Positions 18,862 through 62,167 of a DNA stretch of 64,000 nt are shown here, piece by piece; position 1 is the stretch's first letter, and every line of letters begins with the position of its first letter. Source of the DNA: Eledone cirrhosa (Eukaryota); assembly GCA_964016885.1 (NCBI GenBank), contig OZ024742.1:305846001-305910000 (forward strand). The letters run 5' to 3'. A program made the translations under genes and the position numbers. The notes beneath the pieces are model-generated. The model saw only the letters and a list, made by a program, of their open reading frames with translations. It searched no databases and had not been told where the DNA came from.

Positions 18862-18892
<31 letters not shown>

Positions 18893-18899
<7 letters not shown>

Positions 18900-19085
18900 C
18901 AAACAGCACGGACACTCTATCTCAAAATTATTTTTGAAAAGCATTTAGAAATGCGCAACCGGTAAAAACTTAAAAACTTTAAACCACAACTGAATACTAA
19001 CCCATACAATCACTAATACTCTTTTATTCCTAATTAAACCATTTTTCAACTGTGAACAATTTGTCAGCATTTTCTATTCCGTTTA

Positions 19086-19090
<5 letters not shown>
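18893..19090 (+). mobile_element. PLE 3'-end fragment in (TA)n with variant HHR; near-identical inverted copy at 51672-51869
   Basis: Direct sequence identity between the copies; TTGAAAA-GCATTT ag AAATGC-GCAAC CG GTA at 18934-18964. Confidence 0.75.
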
Positions 19091-19132
<42 letters not shown>

Positions 19133-19905: not shown

Positions 19906-19953
<48 letters not shown>

Positions 19954-19955
<2 letters not shown>

Positions 19956-20138
19956 CGAAGGAAATGTGGTAAGGAACCAGGTGGACCATAACGCACCAAA
20001 GTACTCAATACTTAGGGTAGTAGAGTGGGTAATAGGAACGAGTAGGACCCCGACGGCTGAGCTCAAGCCGTTTCGACGGCTAATTCTGAATTAGCCGTCG
20101 AAACGGCTTGAGCTCAGCCGTCGGAGTCCTACTTCGTT

Positions 20139-20143
<5 letters not shown>
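19954..20143 (-). mobile_element. Short PLE-type element with a terminal palindrome (20032-20143) containing an HHR 3' half; second copy at 54511-54662
   Basis: GAAAC GGC ttgagctca GCC GTC motif; palindrome centred at 20087; (TA)n on both sides. Confidence 0.8.
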
Positions 20144-20175
<32 letters not shown>

Positions 20176-29900: not shown

Positions 29901-30989
29901 AAATATAAATTAGATTCGTCCATAAATTCGCGTTCGCTTCTGTAAAGTTTTCTAATTCAAGGGTAAAGTGGTCAGCTACGCATATGACATATTTGGGATG
30001 TGAAAGGCTGACCTAGATAGGCTTCATAGACAGGGATGGATCTAAACACAATAAATATTTTTAAGAATGAGATTGTGTTAAGAACATAGATTGTACAGGA
30101 AATAAAGGATCTAAGTGAAGATAATTGACTCTATAGAAACGTACAGCTACATCTAGGATCTTACCCCAGAACAGACAATATCGATTTCTATGTTGGGCAC
30201 GAGGTCACATATGTATGGGAGGGAGAGTACAGCCGATTAAATTAACCCCAATCTTTGAGTTGTAATGATTTTATCGATTTTGAAATGATGAAAGGCAAAG
30301 TCAACATTTATTTCCTATCCCTCCACATATTCTTCCCTTCACCACATTCACAGAATAGATAATAGGGATTGATTTCTGGCCAAATAAAAGGCCTCTTTAT
30401 GTGCACATGTGATATAACTGATTAAATCGCACGTCACGCTCCACCAAATGTGAATGATATTATCGCTCTTAAACCGATGAAAGAGAAACAAGATATTATT
30501 TTTGTACTCATTTGATACACAGACATTATGTAGAGTATGACATATATTTTAGTCTTTATTCATTGGCTAATATATGTGCCAAGTAATAAGTTCTTAAAAA
30601 CACAAGTAAACAACATTTATAAAACAATACACAGTGAATAAGTAGGAATAATGAACAAGCCATATATATTTCAAAATAACAAACCCCAATATCAACAACA
30701 GTTATAACATTGACTTGATTTTTTTTTTGTATAAAGGACTTCTTTTGCGATTAAATTGGAAACATTCAAATTATCCCTTTGATACTGCCAATGTATGAGG
30801 CTGAAGGACACACTCTTACAAAACGAACACTTGCTACTCAGGATATAGAAATGTTGGTTGGTGTATTTTATTCGTCTGTCACTACAATTGGCTGCTTTTT
30901 ATATGATACATATCGACATACTTCATTAACATTCAATCCATTTCTATATTTGTACGCTACACTTCATTAAACTACATTTGTACACTTTA

Positions 30990-33079: not shown

Positions 33080-33864
33080 AAAGGAACTGGAGGCGGAAAA
33101 TTAACGGTTACTAAAGAAGGGAACAAATGTTTTGAAAATGTTTTGAAAATGTTTCCCTTGTGAGAAGGAAGAGAAAATAGAAATAATAAATGAAACAATA
33201 AAATACGGCCGAACATAAAAATAATATGAGTGAACGGAAACCATGTAACAGTATAGAATTTCTAATATATTAGGATCATAAGAGAAAGCATCTGATAAGT
33301 AAAAGAAAACCTAATGACATTCGATTGCAAGAATACGGAAGAAAATGAAGGAAAACAAGAAAAAAAGCTATGAATAATACAAAAAGAAAATTCGAAAATC
33401 AATAATTCCACAATAAAAAACGATTGAGAAAAAATGGTATTATTTATGTATGCATAAATTGTATGGGGTGTAGCAAGCAAAAGTATAAAGGAAGCAAATA
33501 TAACAGAAATTATAATGACTTATATATTTAATATTTTCAGATGTTCAACACAACGAGAAACAATTCATATTATATGGAAAACAATTCATAGATATATTTC
33601 TGGATAACAAAAAATAAAAACACTGGTTTTCTATGTAAAAGGTGGTTGCTCAAATTGCTAGAAATAGCAACCATATCACCTTTAAACAATTTAAAAAGAA
33701 TGACCAACCCATAGGAAATTTAGTTTTAGATATGAAAACAACAACAAAAAACATACACACACAATGGAGTGGAATGGCTTTGACGATAGACACATTGAAT
33801 TAGAGAATACCTGAGTATACAGATATATACAGATTTAAATTAAACAGAAACATATATATATTTG

Positions 33865-34850
33865 TTGAAAATGGGGTAAAACAAGGATATAGGAGCACCT
33901 AAACTGTTTGCATTGTATTTCTCTATGGTTTACCATGTGGTATTCGAAGACTGCATAGATGGCATTTATATCATTCATCGTTTGGCAATCAAGTTATATC
34001 ACTTCAGATGGTTTACTGCCAAAACAAAGGTGTTCCCTACTTTATTACATGACGTTTTGTATACAGATGATTGTGGCATTCTTGCACATTCTGAAAGTGT
34101 CATGAAGCACATGTTGGATTCTCTTTCGGAAGCATGCAGACCATTGGGTCTCACAATCAGTCTGGCCAAGGCAGTTGTCATGTATCAACCTGCTCCGGGC
34201 AGGGATCGTACTGAGCCTACCATTTATGTGTTTGGTAAAACATTGAAGGTTTGGGATAACTGTGTGTATTTAGGCAGCACAGTTAACATGACAAATACGC
34301 ATGATTATGAAATCTCGTTACAACTAAAGAATTCAAGTGATTCTTTTGGTAAATTAGATGGGTGTCTCTGGTGCAGCGTGTGATTTTCGATGATACAAAG
34401 TTAAAGGCGTACAGAACATGTATATAGCCTTCATTGCTGTATACATGTAAAACTTGGGACACATACCAGCGAAATATAAAAATGCTTCAACATTTCCTCA
34501 ACATCGTCTTTGCCAAATACTCGGTATTAATTGGAATTCACATATCAGCGATGTTGGAGTGCTGGAATGAAGTTATTTTAAAAGTGTTGAATCTGTCATA
34601 ATTCAATATAGATTGTGCATGAGCAGCTGTGTTGTAAGAATGACAAAGTATCGTATTCCTAAGCAGTTACTATACAGGGAGTTATTTAAGGCATACCCCA
34701 AAACACAGATATGAAGATTACATCAAAAGTGTTTGAGGAATCAAAAATCCTAGTTAACTGGGAAGACATTACCTTAGATCGACCAACTTCGAGGAGAACA
34801 GTGTTTAATGGAAAACAAGAATTTCAAAGATTTCGTGTAGGGCACGAACA
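33865..34850 (+). pseudogene. RTE-clade LINE reverse transcriptase relic
   Basis: NGVKQG, LYTDDCGILAHSE, GLTISLAK..VMYQP, YLGST and RIPKQLLY motifs, with stops and frameshifts. Confidence 0.85.
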
Positions 34851-35261
34851 ATTAAAGACGACGTTCTGCGTAAGTGTCTTCATGATATTGTTTTACCTGA
34901 ATATTCAGATGCCACAAATGATTTTATGTTCAATGGTTGTGGGCGGATTATCCGCAGGAAAGCTGTAAAGCCGGTCAAAAAATTCATCATAGCAGTCATG
35001 TACATAATGTTGCCGATTATTGTCTTTTTGACATTCGTTCCTGTTGGAAGAATGAGAAACAATGTGTCTCGCCAGCGTCATTTAAAAACTCCCCAAAACA
35101 AAACAAGGAACCAGATTTTAAATAATGATCATCACTAAACCTTATGGAGAGAGCAATGTAAATTCTTAGCAGGGCTAAAGAGTCATATTCGTATCACCCG
35201 CGTGTGAGAGAGGATTCTGTTGGTGGCAATTCTTGAAATCGAGATACAGCCATCATGAGAA

Positions 35262-35640
35262 AATGAGTTTTTTTTTAATAAAAAAAACGAGATGTCCTCC
35301 ACGGGTAAAAGTATAAGAAAAATAAATCGAAAATGCAGCTGGAGTTTTTTTAAGAATATTTATATATTTCCTTTGCCAGTTTCACATTTCTTATGCTTTT
35401 GAAAAGTAGAATTGAAATGGAGGGTTTGTGGTTCGTCTCGCCGCTGGTTCGTGTTCGAAAGTTCTTGGTGTTTTTTGGTGTTTTTTTGTTTTTTTTAGAT
35501 GATTTGATTGGTTGATGACTGTCACGAAAATAAGCACAATAAATTTCGCGCCAGTTCACGTTCCAAAGTTCTTATTGTATTTGCCATAAAAAATGTGACT
35601 AAAATTGTTGTTATGTTATAAGTGTAATTTGGTAGGTTGA
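35262..35640 (-). mobile_element. Older copy of the Neptune-type PLE 3' UTR (homologous to 54685-55080)
   Basis: Shared aaatcgaaaatgcaRctggag and gagggtYtgtggtt blocks; decayed HHR near 35370-35407. Confidence 0.7.
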
Positions 35641-40766: not shown

Positions 40767-41038
40767 CCTGTGTCAGTGTTGAACAAAAAGGTGACGTGGT
40801 TGCCTAAACACTGTACGGCGTAATTCGGGCTGTTTGTTTGTTTACAAACAAACCGAACATTATAATAAATGTTCGGTAAACCGATACGTGCATATATATA
40901 TGTGTGCATGTATGTATATATATAGACATACTACTGTACGTCTGTATACATATATGTATGTACGTATACATATATACATACTTACATTTAAGTAACTGCG
41001 GTACTAAGAGTGTGAAATGAAATTTCGTTTCATTCTAT

Positions 41039-41076
<38 letters not shown>

Positions 41077-41116
41077 TTGTGTGCATGTGTATATATATAT
41101 ATATATATATGGTTGT

Positions 41117-41438
41117 GTCCAATGATGTTGACTTGTTCTTCTTTTTGATAAATATCATCTTGGTTAAGAGAGTGGGACTGGCTTTGTGCATTGCCTTTGC
41201 TCACGATAAAAGCTTCACGGCACACGCATTGCTTTGTATCTGGAGATCTCTCTGCACTTGTCGTCACATGGTACCATGTACACTATGTGTCAATAATTGT
41301 CACAAGTGTAGTGTTTGTGCCAGAGTTTTCAAGTCGCTGGCTGGACTAAAAAGTCACACTCGTTCAGCGCATCGATAGGGGTTCTCCTACATGGATATAA
41401 AGTAGTGGCCGTACTCGAAAACGAGTTGGCAGCCACCA
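41117..41438 (+). mobile_element. 5'-truncated copy of the RTE-derived non-autonomous element
   Basis: Reverse complement of 44061-44390; encodes HKCSVCARVFKSLAGLKSHTRSAH (C2H2-like LINE C-terminus). Confidence 0.8.
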
Positions 41439-42239
41439 TATATATATATGCCTCCTTAACCTCTGTATTAACTTGCCCATTATTTTGCTACTTTCTTAAT
41501 GTTGTCTTATACATGTATGTTATTGACGATGAGAAAGCTAGACAACCCTCTCATCTAATATAGACCACACAAATCTCACTACAGTGATAAATTCTTCATC
41601 TGTCAGATAATAACCGACTCTTACGGCCACCTGACCTACATTGTTTAAAGACACCCGCTTATCTTTACACTAGGTATAATACACACCACGACAGCTTTTA
41701 CATGTCAATTTTATACATCTGCCTCATGTCAACTAGTTTTACACGCTAAAATCGTAGATATACTATACTTCCCACCTAGATTGATGTTGTGATTATTTCA
41801 AATGATTTATTGCTAGCATTGTTGATATTGTTGTCATTGTTCTGACTGAGTGCCATTACTACTACATATAGTAGCCATGCCTGTATATTATTTTCATTCT
41901 CATAAGCTCCGATGAACTGACTGGTTATGACTTTGTATTGGCGATCGAGTAACGTGAAAATAAGTGGATAGCGATCTCTAGACCTACCAGTTCAGAGAAA
42001 CAATTGTCAACAATGAGATTAGAAACCTTTTTTGTATAGCAAACCGTGTCACTCTTCTTTCCTGATTTATTATTACTCCAAGTGTTTACAACATAGGAAT
42101 TACAGCGTACTCGCAGCATCACTATGGAAACGCATTGTTGAGTCAAGCTTAGCCAAGCGTTGATATTATCCACTACACGGAGTACCATAACTGGACTACA
42201 CCTAAGTGGACTACCTATAACAATAATTTGTTACCCCGT

Positions 42240-42288
<49 letters not shown>

Positions 42289-42723
42289 ATGATGTTAAAT
42301 AAATAGAAACTATATTTATAAAACCATATTTATTCTATTAAATATATTTCAAGGGTACAAAAACTTTGGTACGCTCTCATCAGATATAACACAAAGTTTT
42401 TTTTAATAAATATTGACATAACCAGGAAAGAAGAACTTAACAGTTTAAGTTTTTCCTTTTGCTTATATATATATATATACTTAAGGTAAATATTGATGCA
42501 ATTCAATTCAAGCACTCAACGTACTCATTCCGCATAGGAGTGACGGAGTGAATAGCGAATAAGGAAAAGCGAAGTAGTTCCAGATGTTCAACTCCTTTAA
42601 TAATAATGCTGCGACATCATCAGATAGCTTGTTATATAATAAGGTAATGTTTCCGAGGCAATCCAATTTGAATCGACATGGGAGCGGATGGAGTGTGTGC
42701 TCTTGGGTTCTTCATCCGTTCCC

Positions 42724-43976: not shown

Positions 43977-44060
<84 letters not shown>

Positions 44061-44063
<3 letters not shown>

Positions 44064-44671
44064 TGGCTGCCAACTCGTTTTCGAGTACGGCCACTACTTT
44101 ATATCCATGTAGGAGAACCCCTACCGATGCGCTGAACGAGTGTGACTTTTTAGTCGAGCCAGCGACTTGAAAACTCTGGTACAAACACTACACTTGTGAC
44201 AATTACTGACACATAGTGCTGGGCCCATGGTACCATGTGACGACAAGTGCAGAGAGATCTCCAGATATAAAGCAATGCCTGTGCCGTGAAGCTTTTATAG
44301 TGAGCAAAGGCACTGCACAAAGCCAGTCCCACTCTCTTAACCAAGATGATATTTACCAAAAAGAAGAACAAGTCAACATCATTGGATACCATCAGGGTTG
44401 CAGGTGTTATATCAGAGTTTTCCTTCTCCTAGAATTCTGCCTTGACAAAGGCTAAGGGGTCATCTCTCCCGGTGATTTTGGATGGCCATTGACTCTTAAG
44501 AGCTCCTTTGCCCTTTGACAGGTTTTGTTTTTAGTCCTGCAGGATGTCCAAAGTCACCCTCCTCACCAAGAAACCTTGGTGGGGTTGCCAGTTTAGTCGC
44601 CAACGACCCGACCATGGGACAGGTTGTACTGGGATACATGTTACCAGTAGCACCAACTGGTGACCTGACAT
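44061..44671 (-). mobile_element. ~610-bp non-autonomous RTE-derived retroposon in (TA)n
   Basis: RTE 5'UTR-type motif CTAGGAGAAGGAAAACTCTGA joined to an RTE-type 3' end; near-identical full copy at 58621-59230. Confidence 0.8.
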
Positions 44672-44684
44672 ACTATATATATAT

Positions 44685-44974
44685 ATTAATAAAAGGAATG
44701 CCAACTTTCTCTGATTTATTCGTTTTATTTACAATCCTTTAAAATTATAATGGTATTAGAATGAAATAGTATGGTAGAATACTAAATGTTAAGTGTTAAT
44801 TGACTGTCACCACAGAATATGAACCTGAAGATTGCGAAAGGATAAACGTACTTGTTCAATTAACACTTAACATTTAATATTCTACTATACTATTTCATTC
44901 TAATACCATTATAATTTTAAAGGATTGTAAATAAAACGAGTAAATCAGACAAAGTTGGAATTCCTTTTATTAAT
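44685..44974. repeat. Inverted repeat (119-bp arms) with a decayed HHR in the loop
   Basis: Arms 44685-44803 and 44856-44974; loop contains gaac-CTGAAGA-ttgc gaaa ggat-AAAC GTA..gttc. Confidence 0.9.
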
Positions 44975-50939: not shown

Positions 50940-51671
50940 GGGTATCAAAAAATAAATATGGTATTTATAGGTCTCTACAAGTGGTAGGAGAGGGTGGGGA
51001 GTGGGATGGGTGCAGGTCATTGGTTGATAGAAAAGGGAGTTCATTAAAAGCTAATTCTACAAAGCTATAGTTAATTTTTATTTATATTTATTTATGTTTT
51101 TAGAGTAACAAAGGCAGACAGAATTCTATAAACAGGTTCCGGATGGCATACCATTCCTTGTCAATAAGTTTCTCTTAAGCTAACAGATGTCTATAAAATC
51201 AGTGGGAGGTCAGTCATGCTCGATAGAATTAAAGAAAAGGGAGATTCTCTAAAAGCTAAAGTCATTAAGGTTCTACTAAGTGACAAAGGTCTAGGGAATT
51301 CTGCAGACAGATTCAAAATACTGAGTGCATATCTTACTATTATCTTCGAACTTCTCTTAAACTAATCAACAATATGCCAAAATCAACAGACACATTCACA
51401 AAAAAACAAAAAAACAAAAAAACAAAAAAACAGACAAACAAAAAAACACACATAAAAAACAAAAAAACACACATACTCACTCACACACTTACGCGCAACC
51501 ATAAACACACACACAAACACATATACACACATAAAAACACACACACATATATAAAGAATATATAAATATATATAAATATACATTCATGTACACACACATA
51601 CATACACACATACATACATACATACATATATATATATATGTATATATGTATACACATATATATATATATAT

Positions 51672-52150
51672 ATTGGTAAACGGAATAGAAAATGCTGACA
51701 AATTGTTCACAGTTGAAAAATGGTTTAATTAGGAATAAAAGAGTATTAGTGATTGTATGGGTTAGTATTCAGTTGTGGTTTTAAGTTTTTAAGTTTTTAC
51801 CGGTTGCGCATTTCTAAATGCTTTTCAAAAATAATTTTGAGATAGAGTGTCCGTGCTGTTTGCTCTGATCTGATTAGTTTTGGGAATTCTACCTGTTTTT
51901 ATGTTAAAAAAATGGCTCCAGCGTTATTTTTGTGTTGTAAAAATGCTTGTGGTCAAAACAATTTTGATTGGTCGGTAGAAGTCATGTGAATGTAAAAAGT
52001 TGATTTTGCGCCAAGACTGTTTTTATGTTAAAATGTTAGAAAAGTGGCTCCAGCAAAAATTATGGTCAAAACAATTTTGATTGGTCGGTAGAGGTCATGT
52101 GGATAAAAAATTGGTTTTGCGCCAAGATTGAGAAATGACTCTTTCACAAC
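51672..52150 (-). mobile_element. PLE 3' UTR fragment (U3-A8 HHR family)
   Basis: Matches 18893-19090; the upstream part is homologous to 54850-55200. Confidence 0.75.
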
Positions 52151-52152
52151 AA

Positions 52153-52206
<54 letters not shown>

Positions 52207-52275
52207 TAGTAGTAGTAAGGTGTTCGATGCTGCGACAATAGCCACCAGCGATGTGTGTCAAATGGCTATTAAGAT

Positions 52276-52319
<44 letters not shown>

Positions 52320-52405
52320 ACATACACACAGCAGAGTCATTCGAAGGTCAAAAGATATTTTTCAGCTTTTGTCTTATACGGAGAAGTGCGTGTGTGTGTG
52401 TGTGT

Positions 52406-53109
52406 GTTCAATATTCCTTGTCTGGCTTTCTGGAGAATAGAGGAAAGGTGTTTCCTCAAAAACCAGTATGACTCTAAAAACCGGTTTGTCTGTGTGTTTA
52501 CATACAGAATAGCTGGATACTCACAGTAAAGTAACCAGTGAAAGACTTGGTACATCTACATATGTATACGTGTGTGTATTCATATGCATACTAGTATTTC
52601 AGTATGCATATGTAGATGTACATTTTTAACTTAATTGTTTAAGCGTCAGTCATACAAAAGTGAGTTACAAACGAAACGAAATTTAATTTCGTTTCGTTAT
52701 TTGTTTTTATCGTCTCCGTTGAACCGGTACGTACTCACACTCTATGCAAATTAGTCTGCCCACTACTAATTTTCAATTTTCATAGAAAAAGCATATAACG
52801 ATATGTGCTTTTACGATTCTCCAGAAAGGCCGGTAGATAGGTAAATATTGCTGATGAGTTGTAACAACAACGAAACTAGTTCAATATTCCTTGTCTGGCT
52901 TTCTGGAGAATAGAGGAAAGGTGTTTCCTCAAAAACCAGTATGACTCTAAAAACCGGTTTGTCTGTGTGTTTACATACAGAATAGCTGGATACTCACAGT
53001 AAAGTAACCAGTGAAAGACTTGGTACATCTACATATGTATACGTGTGTGTATTCATATGCATACTAGTATTTCAGTATGCATATGTAGATGTACATTTTT
53101 AACTTAATT
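52406..53109 (+). mobile_element. Retrozyme-like element: 473-nt unit plus 231-bp direct repeat, no ORF
   Basis: 52406-52636 matches 52879-53109 (offset 473), with the HHR at the junction. Confidence 0.85.
52844..52888 (+). ncRNA. Minimal type I hammerhead ribozyme
   Basis: aatattg-CTGATGA-GTTG taacaa CAAC-GAAAC TA GTT-caatatt; perfect 7-bp stem I; predicted cleavage after 52881. Confidence 0.9.
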
Positions 53110-53800
53110 ATATATATATATATATTGTTAAATTATATGCCTATAAAGAAAACATTATATTATTGTAACATTTATATTGTTTGTGCAAATTAACCGGAGA
53201 TTATCTATTATATAATTATATAGTTTATTATATATTTTATGCTTACTTTTAATCATTTATTCTTCATTTTATACTGTAAATATTATATGTATTATATTTT
53301 CAATTTTATTTTCATTTGTATTTTTATTTTTATTTTAATTTAATTTAATTTTATTTTATTTTATTTTATTTTATTATTACTATTATTATTTATATTTAAA
53401 CTCTTAATAAGGGTTAGTTTGTGCTTCTATTGATGGAAATGTGTATTGATATATATGTATATATGTGTACATATGTATATATATATATATATGTATATTG
53501 GGCCTTTTAACATTATTATTATTATCATCATTATTAATTATATTATATTATATTATATTATATTATATTATATTATATTATATTATATATAGTACAATAA
53601 TTCCCGCTCTATATCACCACCTCTGTTTTAGCTCTAGTTTTTGCATTGGAAATGTTACTTACTTCCTTAGCAATTTTCACTTGATAATTTTTTAATTGAT
53701 AATTTTTACCCGTTTATTTTCCTATGATTTAATCTATGTACACTTCATATTCTTCTGAGTTTTCGGCTTGTATTGGCTGATAGTGCTTCTTATAGCTTTA

Positions 53801-53846
53801 ATTGCCCTGATGAGTCCTTAATAGGACGAAACATTGTTGGCTAATA
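53801..53846 (+). ncRNA. Minimal type I hammerhead ribozyme
   Basis: gcc-CTGATGA-GTCC ttaata GGAC-GAAAC att GTT-ggc; about 150 bp upstream of (TA)n. Confidence 0.88.
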
Positions 53847-53988
53847 AAGACTTTTGATGTATTGAAGGATTCTTTGGGTTTTTTTCATAATTCTTCGGCT
53901 CTGTTTAATTACATTGAGCTATACCTTTACTGTCATTTCTATAATACGATGAGGGTGTTTAACTCCAACACACTCTAGTATTTCAATT

Positions 53989-54079
<91 letters not shown>

Positions 54080-54091
54080 ATATATATATAT

Positions 54092-54467
54092 ATTTATTCA
54101 TTGAACCTTGTTTAACTTTTAAATATATATATATTTAAAACTTAAACAAGGTTCAATGAATAAATCAAAGAATGAGTTTTACAATAGATTGGAAGCACTC
54201 GACTGTTATGGTTTTCCAGAGTTATTAATATTGATTCAAAATATTAACAAAATAGATAGATAGTCTTGTGATCAAGTATATTTTTTTATACATATTTCAG
54301 AGGTACTGAGTTAAGTTCAACAGTCTTAACCATCTACGATGTCAGGGTATGTCATCATCTTATTTTATCTGATGAGGACGTACCTTTGAAGTTAACTCAA
54401 TACCTCTGAAATATGTATAATAAAATATACTTGATCACAAGAATATCTATTTTGTTAAGATTTTGAA

Positions 54468-54470
<3 letters not shown>
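54092..54470. repeat. Element with two inverted repeats (54092-54165 and 54234-54468)
   Basis: The first is centred on a (TA)n; the second has ~85-bp arms with CTGATGAG (54369-54376) in its loop. Confidence 0.85.
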
Positions 54471-54515
<45 letters not shown>

Positions 54516-54684
54516 AACCAGTAAGACCCCGACAGCTGAGCTCAAGCCGTTTCGACGGCTAATTCTGGTCTTACTGGTTCCTATTACCCACTCTACTACC
54601 TCAAGTATTGAGTACTTTGGTGCGTTATGGTCCACCTGGTTCCTTACCACATTTCCTTCGTTATATATATATATATATATATTA

Positions 54685-55731
54685 GAAAGTGAGGTTTTTT
54701 TTACAAATTGAAAAATAACCGAGGTGTCCTACACGAGTGAAAGTATAAAGAAAAAGAGATGAAATCGAAAATGCAACTGGAGTCTTATTTTAAAAAAAAT
54801 ATATATATATTTATTTGGTTCCTTTACCGGTTTCGCAGTTCTTCTGCTTTTCAAAAGGTGAGTTGAGATGGAGGGTCTGTGGTTTTTCTCACATCTGGTT
54901 GGTCTCTGAATGTTACTTGTTTTATATGGAAAAAGTGGCTCGAAATGCCAGGTTTTTCGAGAAGTAATTTCATTGGTTTGTCAATAATTATAATAAATTT
55001 CGCGCCAGTTCGCGTTACAATAGTTCTTCAAATAAGAGGGGGGTTGTCACAGGTTGTTTTTTCATATATGAGTGTTTGAATTTCTTTTTACTTGTAAAAA
55101 GGGGCCCATGAAGGCTTTTTTTTTGGTTGGTTATAAATGAAATTTTGCTGTCACGTGAACAAGTTTTCATTAAATTTTCGTGCCCTTATTTGGAAATCCA
55201 TTCTGTAGCCTTTTTAGAGAATTTTATGATAAGTGAAAGATAATGGTCAAGAGAAAGGGATGGGAGAATTGTTCTGGTTCAGTGAATGTGGTTAGTTCGC
55301 TGGGGTGTCAGAATTGAGATTTTCTATTGAATAAAGAAAGTAAAGATATGTATGATAAATTTGTGTGCTTGTGTGTGTGTGCGTGTGTGTGTGTGTGTGT
55401 GTGTTGTGTGCGTGTGTGTGTGTTGTGTGTGTGTCTGAATTTCTTTACTTAAAAAAAAGGTGGCTCACGAAGGCTTTTTTTAATAAACGTGATTTGATTG
55501 GTTATAAATGAAATTTGGCTGTCACGTGAATAAGTTTTCATTACATTTTCGCGACCTATTTGGAAATCTATTCTGTAGCCTTTATAGAGAATGTTATGAC
55601 AAGGGAAAGATAGTGGTCAAGAGAAATGGGATTGGGAGAATTGTTCTGGTTCAGTGAATATGGTTAGTTCGCTGGGGTGTCAGAGTTCAGATTTTCTATT
55701 GAAGTAAAGATATGTATGTTTATTTGTGTGC

Positions 55732-55776
<45 letters not shown>

Positions 55777-56950
55777 TATTGGAAGATGATTCTATTAGTA
55801 GAAATGGGGGAGGGAGTTGTGGGTGTGGGGGTTGTTATGTGTGTGTATGGGTGTTATGTGTGTGGAAGTATGGTTAGCAAGTCAAGATGAAGAGAATATA
55901 TATATATATTGTGTGTGTGTGTGTAGGAAAATGATTCCTTTAGTAGGAATATTTTTGAATGAACATATTTTCCTTACTTAATCGTATTTGTTCTGTGGTA
56001 TTGTCAGTGCAAACGTATGTTAAGGTTTATTTAGTTCGGGTTTTTATTTTCTAAAGTAGGTGTTATGTGTGTGTGTGTGTATGTCATATTATGGTGTTGA
56101 CATAATGTATATTAAACCATATTTAATGCTGGTCTATATTTTTGAATAAACATATTTTCCTTATTTATTCGTGTTTGTTCTGTTGTATTGTTAACGCAAA
56201 GTTAAAATGGGAAGACTTGGAATGTGGGTGTCTTATTACTTGCGCAAATGTCTAGATGTGCACTTAGTGGTATCTGTCTCGAGGTTGGATCTCGTAATTG
56301 TTGGCGATGAACTGTCATTCTGTTTCTGAGTGTGAGTTTAGTTTGTCCTATATAATCTTCATTGCATCCTTTACATTTAATGGCATAAATTAGATTTTTT
56401 GATGAGCAAGTGAAGTAATTTTTTACAGTAAAAGTTTGTCCTGATTTAAATGTATACGTGTTGCCTTCAATGGGGTGAGTGCAGGTTCCACAATTAGAGC
56501 GACCACATTTTTTGATACTTGGTTGTTGGTTTGTGGTAGGTAATTTGGCATTGGTGTGTAATGTTTTCAGTGATTTTGGTTGTCTTTTGCTTTTGATTAT
56601 TTTGTGTGTTTCAAGGGCTTTTTTCATTCTTGGGTTTCATTTTAGTAGTGGGATGTTCTTGTGAATAGTGTTGTAAGCTTCCGCATTTCTTGGGTTGTGT
56701 GTTGAGATATATGATAGAATATTGGACGTACCTTGAATTTGTTTCTGTTTCCGTAATTCATCAGTGCCTATTGCTTTAGCCCTTTCTATTCCATTATTTA
56801 TTAGTAATAGTGGGTACTCTCTCTCGAGTAGAATTTCCTTTAATTCTTGAAGTCTTTTATTTCGCGTTTCATAATTGGAGACAATTGTGCAAATTCTTCT
56901 TGCTAGGTTAAAAGAAATGTTCGTCTTCGTGTGCATTGGATGGTTGGAGG

Positions 56951-56952
<2 letters not shown>
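54685..56952 (-). mobile_element. Neptune-type Penelope-like element, 5'-truncated (thumb, Cys-rich linker, GIY-YIG, long 3' UTR with an internal ~360-bp duplication)
   Basis: SNHPMHTKTNISFNLARRICTI..EYP..; KCGRSNCGTC; NLIYAIKCKGCNEDYIGQTKLTLRNRMTVH; premature stops; (TA)n at both ends. Confidence 0.9.
54821..54858 (-). ncRNA. Hammerhead ribozyme with U3-A8 core variant
   Basis: Minus strand: CCTT-TTGAAAA-GCAG aagaa CTGC-GAAAC CG GTA-AAGG. Confidence 0.75.
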
Positions 56953-57013
<61 letters not shown>

Positions 57014-57017
<4 letters not shown>

Positions 57018-57322
57018 ATACTTTGGGAGGGTCATGTTGCCAATAAGAAACACACGCACCAGTTGCTTTCACTTCAATTTATTATATATTTATAAATTTA
57101 TAAATTTATAAATTTCTGGTTGGTTGGTTGGTTCCACAACCAGATAGTTGTTTATATATAGTCATAGTTCTTTCGTCACACTCTCTGTGACCTCTTCAGT
57201 GACTGGGGATTCCTTTCTTTGTTTCTGTGCCTCTCCTTTGTTCTGTCCTACGCCATTTTGTTTCTGTGTTCACACAGTGCGTGTGTTTCTTATTGTCAAC
57301 ATGACCCTCCCAAAGCATAACA
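57014..57322. mobile_element. Short element with ~46-bp terminal inverted repeats in (TA)n
   Basis: tgttatactttgggagggtcatgttgccaataagaaacacacgcac versus gtgcgtgtgtttcttattgtcaacatgaccctcccaaagcataaca. Confidence 0.75.
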
Positions 57323-57364
<42 letters not shown>

Positions 57365-57859
57365 CTCGTCCCATGGACTGAGTGCTCTACCACTACGGAT
57401 ATTACCTTCCAGTGTTCTACCTCTCTCTCTATATATATATATGCATTCATATGTATGAGCTTGTGTCTAATAATTTATTTATACATGTTTCCATACGTTG
57501 TATATGCGTAGTATATGTGTACATGTTTGCAAATTGGTGATTTCTGACATTTATGTATCAATATGAGACAGAAAGAAAACTTCTGCTCCTGTCAACGCGA
57601 AAGTTATTGTAGCAAAACTCATCCATATTACATAATCTTCCAATCGTCTTACAGTTGTCCATTTCTTCCTTCTTATTTGTCATTTTTCTTTGTTTATTTG
57701 CTTTCTTATAATCCATTGTTCACTATTTTTCTTCTGTATATTTTGTTTTCTTTTTATATTATATTTATATTTCTATTTGTTATTCTTGTTGTCTGTGCAT
57801 TTTTTTTTTGTTCTTTTGTATATAATTTGCCCTCCTTCGAAGACCCTTCACCTCTTCCT

Positions 57860-57934
<75 letters not shown>

Positions 57935-58620
57935 ATGCTGCTGCTGCTGATGATGATGATGGTGATGATGATGATGTTGATGCTGCTACTGGTGTCAACA
58001 TTACCGCTATTGCAGCTAGCAACTTTATTATCTAATGTCATCTAGTGCAAATAGTGGTGAATGTCAGAAACATGTCAACCAGTAACATACGGACCACAGC
58101 GATTACAGACGCTGTCATCACTACAACTAACACTGGCACCACCACCTCAAAGATCACAACCATCAACAACAACTACCTTACCACCATAAACACTACAACG
58201 AAGAGGACGACAACGAGTAATAGCACCTCTCCTGCACCTCTCTGCCGCATATGTATATATAGGTGCACACAAGTGTAGAATCTAGTAGATGTGTAGCATG
58301 CCCAGGTAGCACATTACCTCGCAGAGAATTCAATTTAATAGGGATACTAATAAATCTTTAGGATTTGAATACTAAAGTGACGTTTGAATTCAGAACGCAG
58401 CAAATTATGGGAGGAGATACCAAACGACAGCTCTTTCGAGGCTTTAACAATTTGGGAGTACAATGTTTTGGATTGGTACTTTATTTATAGACAACCGACA
58501 AGAAAGCAGGATTTAAAATAACATAAACCATGCAATCCAGGGTTATTTAGACGCTGCAAATCACCTGAAACATACATACATACATACATACATACATACA
58601 TACATACATACATACATACA

Positions 58621-59230
58621 TGGTGGCTGCCAACTCGTTTTCGAGTACGGCCACTACTTTATATCCATGTAGGAGAACCCCTACGATGCGCTGAACGAGT
58701 GTGACTTTTTAGTCCAGCCAGCGACTTGAAAACTCTGGTACAAACACTACACTTGTGACAATTATTGACACATAGTGCTGTGCCCATGGTACCATGTGAC
58801 GACAAGTGCAGAGAGATCTCCAGATATAAAGCAATGCCTGTGCCGTGAAGCTTTTATAGTGAGCAAAGGCACTGCACAAAGCCAGTCCCACTCTCTTAAC
58901 CAAGATGATATTTACCAAAACAAAGAACAAGTCAACATCATTGGATACCATCAGGGTTGCAGGTGTTATATCAGAGTTTTCCTTCTCCTATAATTCTTGC
59001 TTGACAAAGGCGAAGGGGTCATCTCTCCCAGTTATTTTGGATGGCCATTGACTCTTAAGAGCTCCTTTGCCTTTTGACAGGTTTTGTTTTTAGTCCTGCA
59101 GGATGTCCAAAGTCACCCTCCTCACCAAGAAACCTTGGTGGGGTTGCCAGTTTAGTCGCCAACGACCCGACCATGAGACAGGTTGTACTGAAATACATGT
59201 TACCAGTAGCACCAAGTGGTGACCTGACAT
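58621..59230 (-). mobile_element. RTE-derived non-autonomous retroposon in (TACA)n
   Basis: Near-identical to 44061-44671. Confidence 0.85.
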
Positions 59231-59280
59231 AATACATACATACATACATACATACATACATACATACATACATACATACA

Positions 59281-60171: not shown

Positions 60172-62167
60172 TAGAGTGTGCCATAAAAAGTAAGGTCACA
60201 ATACTAACGCTCCCTGTGTATTCTCCCATTATAAATGCCCCAATTGGTAAAATAAAACATTGCCTATATCATGGTGATTATAGTGGAAAGTGTGATTATG
60301 TTGCATGAAATCATGAAAATGTGAAACCAAATATGACCATACAATAATTGTTTATTCTATTAATCCATTATATTTAGTAAACCAGCTTTGAATATAAAGG
60401 CGTACAAGGAAGAAACAAGTTCAGTTAAGTTAACTCCAGTCATACTTTTTTCAGAGTTTCTTTTTCGAAATCCGGGACCTTGCGACGATGTGCTTCGACT
60501 ACTTGAAGAAAACACTGCTTCTCCTTCTCGTTCTTGGTGATGGCAACAAAATCAGTTATCAACTTGACTGCTCTCTCCGCCAGATCGTTGACTACCTTGA
60601 TATTGTGAACAACAGCACAGGCATTTTGATATGACGCTTGTGATGACCAAGTTGCAGGTGACAGCTCAAGTCAAGTATCGTCGAGACCAAGGAGATCGAA
60701 CAGAAGCCTTGATTTCTTCCCAACTAGACGAGGCAGCTTCGTGGACGACTTCAACTCGTGAAATACTGGAGCACCACGGTCGAGAGGCCCAGATGTTTTC
60801 TTTTTGACAAGACGTTTGGCTATTTGTTTCTTCTCGGACTCTTGGACCCGACTTGAAAACAGCGCTAGCGGAATGGCTTCCTCCGTCAGGTACCCAAGAT
60901 GCCTGCTCAGAGCAGTAGTGGCTGCCTGCGATAGATCTCTGTCAACCTTACTGTACTGTGTCAACTCCACGTAGAATTGAAGGTCATTGGATGGTGCATC
61001 AGTACACTTGACTGCTGTCAGCCAGTATCGCACGTAGAACAGAGCATTGAACATACAGATCCGGCGCAACTTTTCCATTTTAGCTTGATCGTAATTGAGT
61101 CGCTCACCAAATACATACATCTTTGCACTATAGATGATTGTGGACATCCACCGAGCATTATGATGTGGACCAGGCAGCATCCAATGAATTCAACGAGGAC
61201 GGGTGACACCAAGCAAGATCAACATCAACTCGGCACATTCTCGGTAGACATCCCGTAGAAGTGAACTCATTTCCCCATCGTCGGATGTCAGCAAATCTTG
61301 GGGGAACTTGATGTTCTCAGAACACAGATGCTTCAGTCTCCGGTCGACAATGTTCAATGTTTTAAAGTTGATCTTGTCCGTGAGTGACACCCAATCTTTT
61401 TTGAACTGCTTGAACACTGGGGGTGTCTGGACTGGACATTGCTCCGAATAGTTGTTGCCACACTGCACACAAGATACGCTCCATGAATGGTGCCGACAAG
61501 CAAAATAAAACATCTTTTTGTTGAGCATCTCTTCTAGTTTCACACAGGTACTATTTCTCCATCCAGAACTCGAAGCAGTTGTGTCGAAGACCAAGCCCAC
61601 CACAGACCCATCAACATTCCAATCTTTAACAAGATCAAATGATGCTTTGGCCTGGGTGGTTCCAGTGCCATCAGGAATTATGGGAACACCGAGGAGTTTA
61701 CCTTCTCTGAAGTCCGGAGTGCCAGCAACTAGCACACCTAGCCTCTCGTGGTCACCAGGAATTATTTTGCCATCCCAATGCAAGGTAACAAAGTCTGGTA
61801 CAGCAAATTGTTCCTTTATGTGTTCAGTCCCCAGAGTTCTGATCTTTTCATGTTTTTCATAGGACCCTCTTTCAGATAGAAGAAATATCTTAGAACATCC
61901 CCCTCTGTTGGTATTTATTTTAGTGAAAAGGAAGTAAAATATTGCCCCAGGAGCCATATTTCTAGATCATCACAACGGAGCTACAACTAGGCCCACTGGT
62001 TTCCGCCATTATTCTGCCAATTTGCAACGATTAGGCAATGCGTACATTAGTCTGAAATAATCAAAATAACATTATAAATTGATAATATACAAAATTGCAT
62101 GAGATAATGCATAGGGAGCTAAGAAAAAAAGACTTTTGTGTAAAATGTGGGATTCTGGAACACCCTA
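60172..62167 (-). mobile_element. hATm-like DNA transposon with a frameshifted transposase (~60400-61860)
   Basis: LHWDGK, FDTTASSSG, ACRHH, HNARWM, GYLTEE and NDLAERAVKL motifs. Imperfect TIRs TAGAGTGTGCCATAA / TAGGGTGTTCCAGAA. Flanks atacatac / atagacac are a possible decayed 8-bp TSD. Confidence 0.75.

Follow-up and report, generated by a model that had tools for sequence, protein, structure and literature searches.

Locus and motif

The window (the whole stretch of Eledone cirrhosa DNA that was analyzed, 64,000 nucleotides) is AT-rich (about 33% GC) and microsatellite-rich and holds many transposon remnants. At 54821-54858 of its minus strand, a minimal type I hammerhead with a U3-A8 core can be read directly from the letters. 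Its parts are as follows.

54821-54858, minus strand: type I hammerhead motif, the sole copy of four with every core position intact
54858-54855 and 54824-54821, minus strand: 5' and 3' arms of stem I (4 bp)
54854-54848, minus strand: core positions 3 to 9, UUGAAAA (U3 at 54854, A8 at 54849)
54847-54835, minus strand: stem II, four Watson-Crick pairs and a 5-nt loop
54834-54832, minus strand: G12-A13-A14
54831-54826, minus strand: 6-nt stem III palindrome ACCGGU (self-duplex, -8.3 kcal/mol), predicted to pair between copies
54825, minus strand: A17

We compared the motif with the type I pattern (U4, G5, A6, A9, G12, A13, A14, A15.1-U16.1, and H17). It forms a three-way junction that ends in stem I and has no core mismatch; the predicted cut site lies on the minus strand between A17 (54825) and 54824. 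An earlier note on this DNA had described a TTGAAAA core, paired stems I and II, and an ACCGGT stem III, all of which are borne out, on the minus strand. Its statement that positions 3 and 8 form a Watson-Crick pair also holds, in that U3-A8 occurs in 4/4 copies of the family; the support is complementarity alone, as the pair is invariant here. On its sequence, 54821-54858 is a genuine hammerhead-ribozyme motif.

Chance expectation and database searches

A strict descriptor matched one U3-A8 motif in the 64-kb window and none in 300 block-wise dinucleotide shuffles, while a loose descriptor gave two matches in the window and seven over 300 shuffles. The second loose match, at 33143 (+), is without family and probably arose by chance. 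U3-A8-like matches at 30695 (-) and 33111 (+) were rejected as probable chance as well. The descriptors were drawn up after the motif had been seen, and five core types were scanned. A relaxed scan (up to two core mismatches) returned nine matches in the window: four with no mismatch, four with one (0.23 expected), and one with two (0.39 expected). The zero-mismatch set consists of the 54.8-kb motif and three canonical C3-G8 motifs (at 52851, 53807, and 57199); G3-C8, A3-U8, and U3-G8 cores had no zero-mismatch match in the window.

These counts bear on whether the motif is a chance match in AT-rich repeat DNA. The motif is short, the descriptor is post hoc, and relaxed descriptors yield 0.2 to 0.4 random matches per window at one to two core mismatches. 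However, zero-mismatch matches average just 0.01 per shuffled window, and the 3' end of a Penelope-like element (PLE) is the expected place for such motifs. We regard the likelihood of a chance match as negligible.

Rfam (E ≤ 1; RF00163, clan CL00010) did not report 54821-54858. At this threshold there were 131 matches in the window, nearly all of them microsatellite artefacts, and two hammerhead matches elsewhere. Two of the three canonical motifs in the window were reported below the gathering score, and the third (57160-57204) was missed. Because this canonical hammerhead was missed too, the failure at 54.8 kb is not attributable to U3-A8 alone. GTDB genomes contained no match to the motif pattern and 67 pattern matches to the PLE protein, none confirmed; both results are expected for a eukaryotic element and are uninformative.

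The probable Neptune-type element around the motif

Upstream of the motif on the same strand lies a broken PLE coding region. The parts of the element are listed in sense-strand order, after the insertion as a whole.

54682-56953, minus strand: probable single 5'-truncated Neptune-type insertion, for which we infer continuity; the sense strand is A-rich from ORF to motif
56112-56954, minus strand: PLE ORF relic, C-terminal 280 codons, with two internal in-frame stops
55949-56013, minus strand: incomplete tandem copy of the end of the ORF (87.7% over 65 bp)
55896-55909: 14-nt TA run between the ORF part and the motif part
55069-55777, minus strand: two tandem ~350-bp putative 3' UTR units (55428-55777 and 55069-55415; 84.6% identical)
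54682-54820, minus strand: ~140-bp tail from the motif to the terminal TA run

The coding relic that the earlier note placed at 56.1-56.95 kb was confirmed at 56112-56954 (-). It encodes the RT C-terminus, a CX4CX2C linker, and a GIY-YIG domain with CCHH; at 71% identity, it aligns with residues 493-772 of a complete, unnamed RT-EN protein. The GIY-YIG domain (PF01541; E = 9e-7) is C-terminal to the RT, an arrangement that rules out Naiad. In an alignment of eight proteins (the relic and 7 of 14 PLE relatives), linker residues C150/C155/C158 and CCHH residues C194/C197/H216/H233 are invariant (8/8). By-eye comparison of the 24-aa spacer matches it to the Neptune rows, unlike Nematis or Poseidon. 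The relic, from which the RT core is absent, is thus Neptune-type as judged by linker, CCHH, and spacer.

The insertion is bounded by TA runs at 54662-54681 and 56954-57013. After the ORF stop come the partial ORF-end duplicate, the 14-nt TA run, the two ~350-bp units, the motif, the tail, and the terminal TA run. The motif lies 1.25 kb downstream of the ORF relic on the same strand, and no other hammerhead was found on the minus strand between the ORF stop and 54854. Neither tandem unit contains one, unlike the units of non-LTR retrozymes, in which every tandem repeat carries a hammerhead. Across the TA run, ORF-adjacent sequence matches sequence before the tandem units at 36/43 positions (0/500 shuffles), a match that CA repeats inflate. 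Unit 1 matches the four-copy family profile (E = 5.7e-6); direct alignment of the tandem units to upstream segments was significant in only 1/4.

The linkage of ORF and motif is seen in one of four copies and spans the 14-nt TA run. The motif-bearing 1.2 kb could instead be a non-autonomous element of its own that entered the same TA hot spot, in which case it would not be the 3' UTR of this ORF. This arrangement would suit the TA run at 55896-55909 that divides the two parts, a region that is a pile of independent PLE-type inserts, and the three other copies, which are without an adjacent ORF. It would not explain the shared strand, the continuous A-rich composition, or the common sequence flanking the TA run, and it would leave the relic without the 3' hammerhead that canonical EN+ PLEs are described as carrying (PMC8557442). 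We consider two separate elements improbable. The ORF relic and the motif probably belong to the same insertion, and the earlier placement of the motif in the 3' UTR of a Neptune-type relic is most likely correct given the shared strand, the 36/43 match, and the lack of an intervening hammerhead.

Other copies of the family

Three further copies of the motif were found in the window.

51795-51831, minus strand: sister-subfamily copy with U3-A8, C13 (51806), a 5-bp stem II, and a 3-bp stem I
18931-18967, plus strand: second sister-subfamily copy with U3-A8 and C13 (18956)
35371-35406, minus strand: decayed copy with U3 and A8 kept, C5, C16.1, and a broken palindrome

The 51.8-kb copy lies within a 5'-truncated insert of about 51672-52156 and the 18.9-kb copy within ~195 bp of inserted sequence flanked by TA runs 18865-18894 and 19089-19132. 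Inserts 18896-19090 and 51672-51866 are identical at 194/195 bases; the two insertions are oppositely oriented and reach different points at their 5' ends. We infer that a single C13-bearing source gave rise to both insertions recently; given their near identity, the two copies count as one lineage and not as two confirmations. Both share the heptamer and the palindrome of the 54.8-kb motif but have GCAA in place of GAAA (positions 12 to 15), and their stem I consists of only three U-A pairs with a predicted probability of 0.02 or less. The earlier note had assigned them the same core, which is right for the heptamer and palindrome and wrong for C13 and the 3-bp stem I. An A at position 13 is needed for hammerhead cleavage according to classical mutagenesis. 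The alternative that GCAA reflects an insertion and not C13 was rejected on inspection, as it leaves no canonical 15.1-16.1 pair.

The decayed copy that had been noticed near 35.4 kb was found as described, in a remnant of about 35255-35597, with G5 and U16.1 lost. U3, A8, and A17 are present in 4/4 copies (three lineages), while the complete core occurs in 1/4 (54.8 kb only). The other three depart from the type I pattern, and their altered cores are predicted to be inactive. Searching the window with a four-copy profile retrieved no further motif-bearing member, nor did the window yield a family member with C3-G8. The variant had been called fixed in its family. The lack of a C3-G8 relative in the window agrees with this, but the sample is just three lineages within 64 kb. 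All four copies end 120-170 bp past the motif and differ in 5' extent; three of them end at a TA run, and the 35-kb copy does not.

Conservation between lineages

Across the three lineages, 30/33 pair cells are kept, compared with 20-52% in slid controls. Two stem pairs changed on both sides, but 53/500 shuffles (three lineages) do likewise; the covariation is therefore not significant. Identity between the 54.8- and 51.8-kb lineages is 77% in the motif, 65% in the 80 nt upstream (P = 0.21 versus the motif), and 49% in the 120 nt downstream (P = 0.003 versus the motif). Upstream flanks are 58-65% alike between lineages. The argument that the motif is a conserved island is accordingly valid against the downstream flank only. 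These comparisons at most suggest structural selection on the motif. The ~40-80 nt directly upstream of the motif (54859-54940 (-) and equivalents) are conserved between lineages as well as the motif is, possibly as a promoter or protein-binding signal.

Comparison with known hammerheads and PLEs

Natural U3-A8 covariation was reported in 2011 by Perreault et al., who termed such covariants compensatory and noted that they had earlier been shown active in vitro (PMC3088659). In 2014, Cervera and de la Pena first met U3-A8 in a Cercyon PLE, a type that their own descriptor had missed, and counted about 1,300 U3-A8 matches in S. mansoni (PMC4209133). The core is thus not new, having been published in PLE hammerheads (PMC4209133) and before that in other natural hammerheads (PMC3088659). 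The hammerheads of Perreault et al. share the core covariation with the present motif; no PLE link is stated in the available text of that paper (PMC3088659). The 56-row alignment of Cervera and de la Pena has two U3-A8 rows, one of them with the UUGAAAA heptamer, and one U3-G8 row. In the available version of this alignment, no row combines U3 with A17 and no cephalopod is included; hammerheads in Neptune elements are listed, and solitary copies are described as the norm for truncated PLEs (PMC4209133).

The closest parallel is with S. mansoni Sm3/Sm4, which are likewise U3-A8 PLE type I motifs missed by a standard descriptor. The S. mansoni(4) row has the same core heptamer, and the S. mansoni copies are mostly solitary and heterogeneous (PMC4209133). 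Unlike these, the motif here accompanies a Neptune-type ORF, has no extra base between 9 and 10.1, and has a 6-nt palindromic stem III, whereas theirs is the shortest form. It also has A17, while the two published U3-A8 rows have G17 and U17 (PMC4209133). PLE hammerheads of Drosophila, rotifer, shrimp, and mosquito resemble it in their short stems I and II, palindromic stem III, and dimer architecture, but their rows are C3-G8 (PMC4209133). Minimal PLE motifs are without the loop I/loop II tertiary contact of fast natural hammerheads.

The element resembles EN+ PLEs of the Neptune clade (PMC8557442) in its C-terminal GIY-YIG domain with CCHH, its CX2-5CxxC-type linker, its long spacer, its TA-run flanks, and its probable 3' hammerhead. 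It differs in having a long 3' region with tandem units. Neptune is paraphyletic in Craig et al. (PMC8557442). Anolis Poseidon PAc also carries a PLE hammerhead and is a model for protein-assisted cleavage: cleavage depended on the protein, and insertion in vitro still took place with catalytic mutants. In contrast to the motif here, PAc has a C3-G8 core, belongs to another clade, and has a hammerhead that overlaps the start codon (PMC11167929).

We found no literature report of U3-A8 in a Neptune element, although the survey of Lunse et al. (2017) may already contain the type. In the available text of the octopus/Penelope hammerhead literature, no report on this motif was found. With this variant, the published core covariation extends to a second PLE clade and probably to a new host, and U3-A8 belongs in hammerhead search descriptors.

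Predicted folding and proposed mechanism

In the energy model, closing stem III in the monomer is unfavorable (+0.7 versus -4.7 kcal/mol with stem III open). The minimum-energy homodimer is a double hammerhead at -20.3 kcal/mol, compared with -12.8 kcal/mol (2 x -6.4) for two monomers. This predicted difference of 7.5 kcal/mol is accompanied by inter-strand stem III probabilities of 0.92-1.00. The short palindromic stem III at 54.8 kb is thus predicted to favor the dimer, as in minimal, dimeric PLE motifs. Monomer stability is unexceptional (z = -0.94), and the stem I probability drops to 0.04-0.05 with 50-100 nt of flank. No extended stem I was predicted with 20-100 nt flanks, and no loop I/loop II contact is evident. 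No other intact copy is present that could act as a tandem partner; on the same strand, the closest member of the family lies 3 kb away, carries C13, and has a stem I arm that matches poorly. A 54.8/51.8-kb heterodimer was rejected by inspection, as the stem I arms match at two positions.

A U3-A17 pair, which would extend stem I over the cut site, is predicted with probabilities of 0.56 in the monomer and 0.46 in the dimer. This trap is modeled as worth 1.4 kcal/mol for two pairs and is nearly absent from the C13 subfamily (P = 0.02). Variants with C or U at position 17 are predicted to lose stem I. A C3-G8 version of this scaffold is predicted to misfold, with the stem II probability falling from 0.83 to 0.22; in silico, the C3/G8 version folds into another hairpin and was therefore discarded as a clean control.

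One explanation for these predictions is a regulated gate, in which U3 together with A17 is a selected off-switch and their pair locks the cut site until dimerization or RT-EN binding. U3, A8, and A17 occur together in 4/4 copies, U3 is found with A17 in 0/56 of the published representative rows (PMC4209133), and the predicted 3-17 pairing is more probable in the monomer than in the dimer. A precedent exists in the C3-G17 trap, by which G17 variants are slowed 8- to 100-fold (PMC3884650). However, the lock is modeled at just 1.4 kcal/mol for two pairs, survives in the dimer, and is missing from the C13 subfamily. Common ancestry accounts for the co-occurrence of the three bases, and the energy model leaves out the tertiary core. 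We therefore hold a selected gate to be highly unlikely.

We favor, with somewhat better than even confidence, a reading in which the U3-A8 hammerhead is the 3'-end (pseudo-LTR) ribozyme of a Neptune-type PLE family, with predicted cleavage that is slow, confined to paired motifs, and likely protein-assisted. Two motifs in a tandem element transcript would anneal through the palindromic stem III into a double hammerhead in which U3-A8 substitutes for C3-G8. G12 and the 2'-OH of residue 8 would then cut after A17 and trim the precursor. In hammerhead catalysis, G12 serves as the base and residue 8 contributes its 2'-OH as the acid, roles that are compatible with A8 (PMC6155905). The competing U3-A17 pair would hide the cut site about half the time, and the element's own protein likely assists. 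The dimer model is accepted for the motifs of PLEs, in which cleavage is weak even in the dimer (PMC4209133, PMC6765202).

The earlier note had treated U-A as a compensatory swap. This holds for pairing, but neutrality is not a given: when one type III hammerhead was scanned pairwise, G3-C8 alone restored activity at the 3-8 pair (PMC9901934). Slow cleavage would be expected from the U3-A17 trap, the weakness of PLE dimers, and the conflicting 3-8 rescue reports. Because there is no intact partner and the ORF is broken, the 54.8-kb copy is likely inert at its present locus. Cleavage is likely dispensable for a single insertion round, which would explain the recent copying of the C13 subfamily.

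Vestigial and two-state readings

Alternatively, the ribozyme may be vestigial, with cleavage lost long ago, U3 and A8 the product of AT-ward drift or early decay, and the motif inherited along with the 3' end. Three of the four copies are defective, the youngest pair included, and the recently copied subfamily has C13 and a 3-bp stem I with a probability of about 0 in context. Both core changes are toward A/T in a window of ~33% GC, and catalysis was dispensable in vitro for another PLE (PMC11167929). Nevertheless, the 54.8-kb copy retains all other core positions although the lineages are only 58-65% alike upstream, and the two changed stem pairs are compensatory. Furthermore, two random core changes would land on positions 3 and 8 about 1 time in 78 (simple arithmetic, before ascertainment). 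We consider long-standing loss of cleavage unlikely, while giving it appreciable weight.

A two-state family is a more speculative reading that we rate as rather doubtful. The older U3-A8/A17 branch would be self-locked and opened by dimerization or protein, while the young, mobile C13 branch would have dropped catalysis and kept stem II and the palindrome as a dimerization or recognition signal. If true, the family would amount to a natural experiment, in vivo, on the need for cleavage by PLE hammerheads; what hammerheads do in EN+ PLEs has been described as not yet clear (PMC8557442). Independently of this reading, a 99.5%-identical insertion pair with a defective-looking core hints that cleavage is unneeded for copying in vivo. 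Two copies constitute no more than a lead, and the hint agrees with the in vitro result for Anolis (PMC11167929).

Neighboring elements

Within the 6 kb at 51600-57600, four families are represented by at least five hammerhead motifs, and several palindromic inserts are also present. The inserts are mostly bounded by TA runs, and the region is an insertion hot spot. The canonical C3-G8 hammerhead at 57160-57204 (-) has a 5-bp stem I, an extra base after position 9, and a 6-bp stem II. It lies within a TA-flanked inverted-repeat insert (~57014-57323) directly upstream of the Neptune relic that likely represents another PLE family. A second canonical hammerhead, at 52844-52888 (+), has a 7-bp stem I and a palindromic stem III (Rfam HH9, 38.6 bits). 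Its repeat units, 52406-52636 and 52879-53109, share 231 identical bases and appear to be a very young retrozyme-like or PLE tandem. A third, at 53804-53841 (+; Rfam Hammerhead_1, 29.1 bits), is followed by AATAAA and resembles the 3' end of a third PLE remnant. A self-inverted repeat at 54228-54474, which has a relative at 42239-42389, contains a weak match to the canonical core (54361-54427). A MITE-like palindromic repeat of ~150-200 bp with a GC-rich inner hairpin occurs at 54483-54682 and 19934-20171 (copies 80% alike).

Other remnants are spread over the rest of the window. A second PLE-like remnant at 7039-8180 spans the window's only N gap (7112-7311) and shows a weak RT match (7372-7617) and, on the opposite strand, endonuclease-like ORFs (7663-8180). 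A LINE-type RT remnant (PF00078) lies at 33880-35138 (+). Repeat copies at 41016-41449, 44021-44686, and 58581-59245 are 94-95% identical and end in a C2H2-finger-coding LINE tail. Finally, broken transposase-like ORFs at 60671-61966 (-) have many uncharacterized animal relatives (Cc8K15.2-like; one named transposase), with named matches in arthropods, a cnidarian, and a frog.
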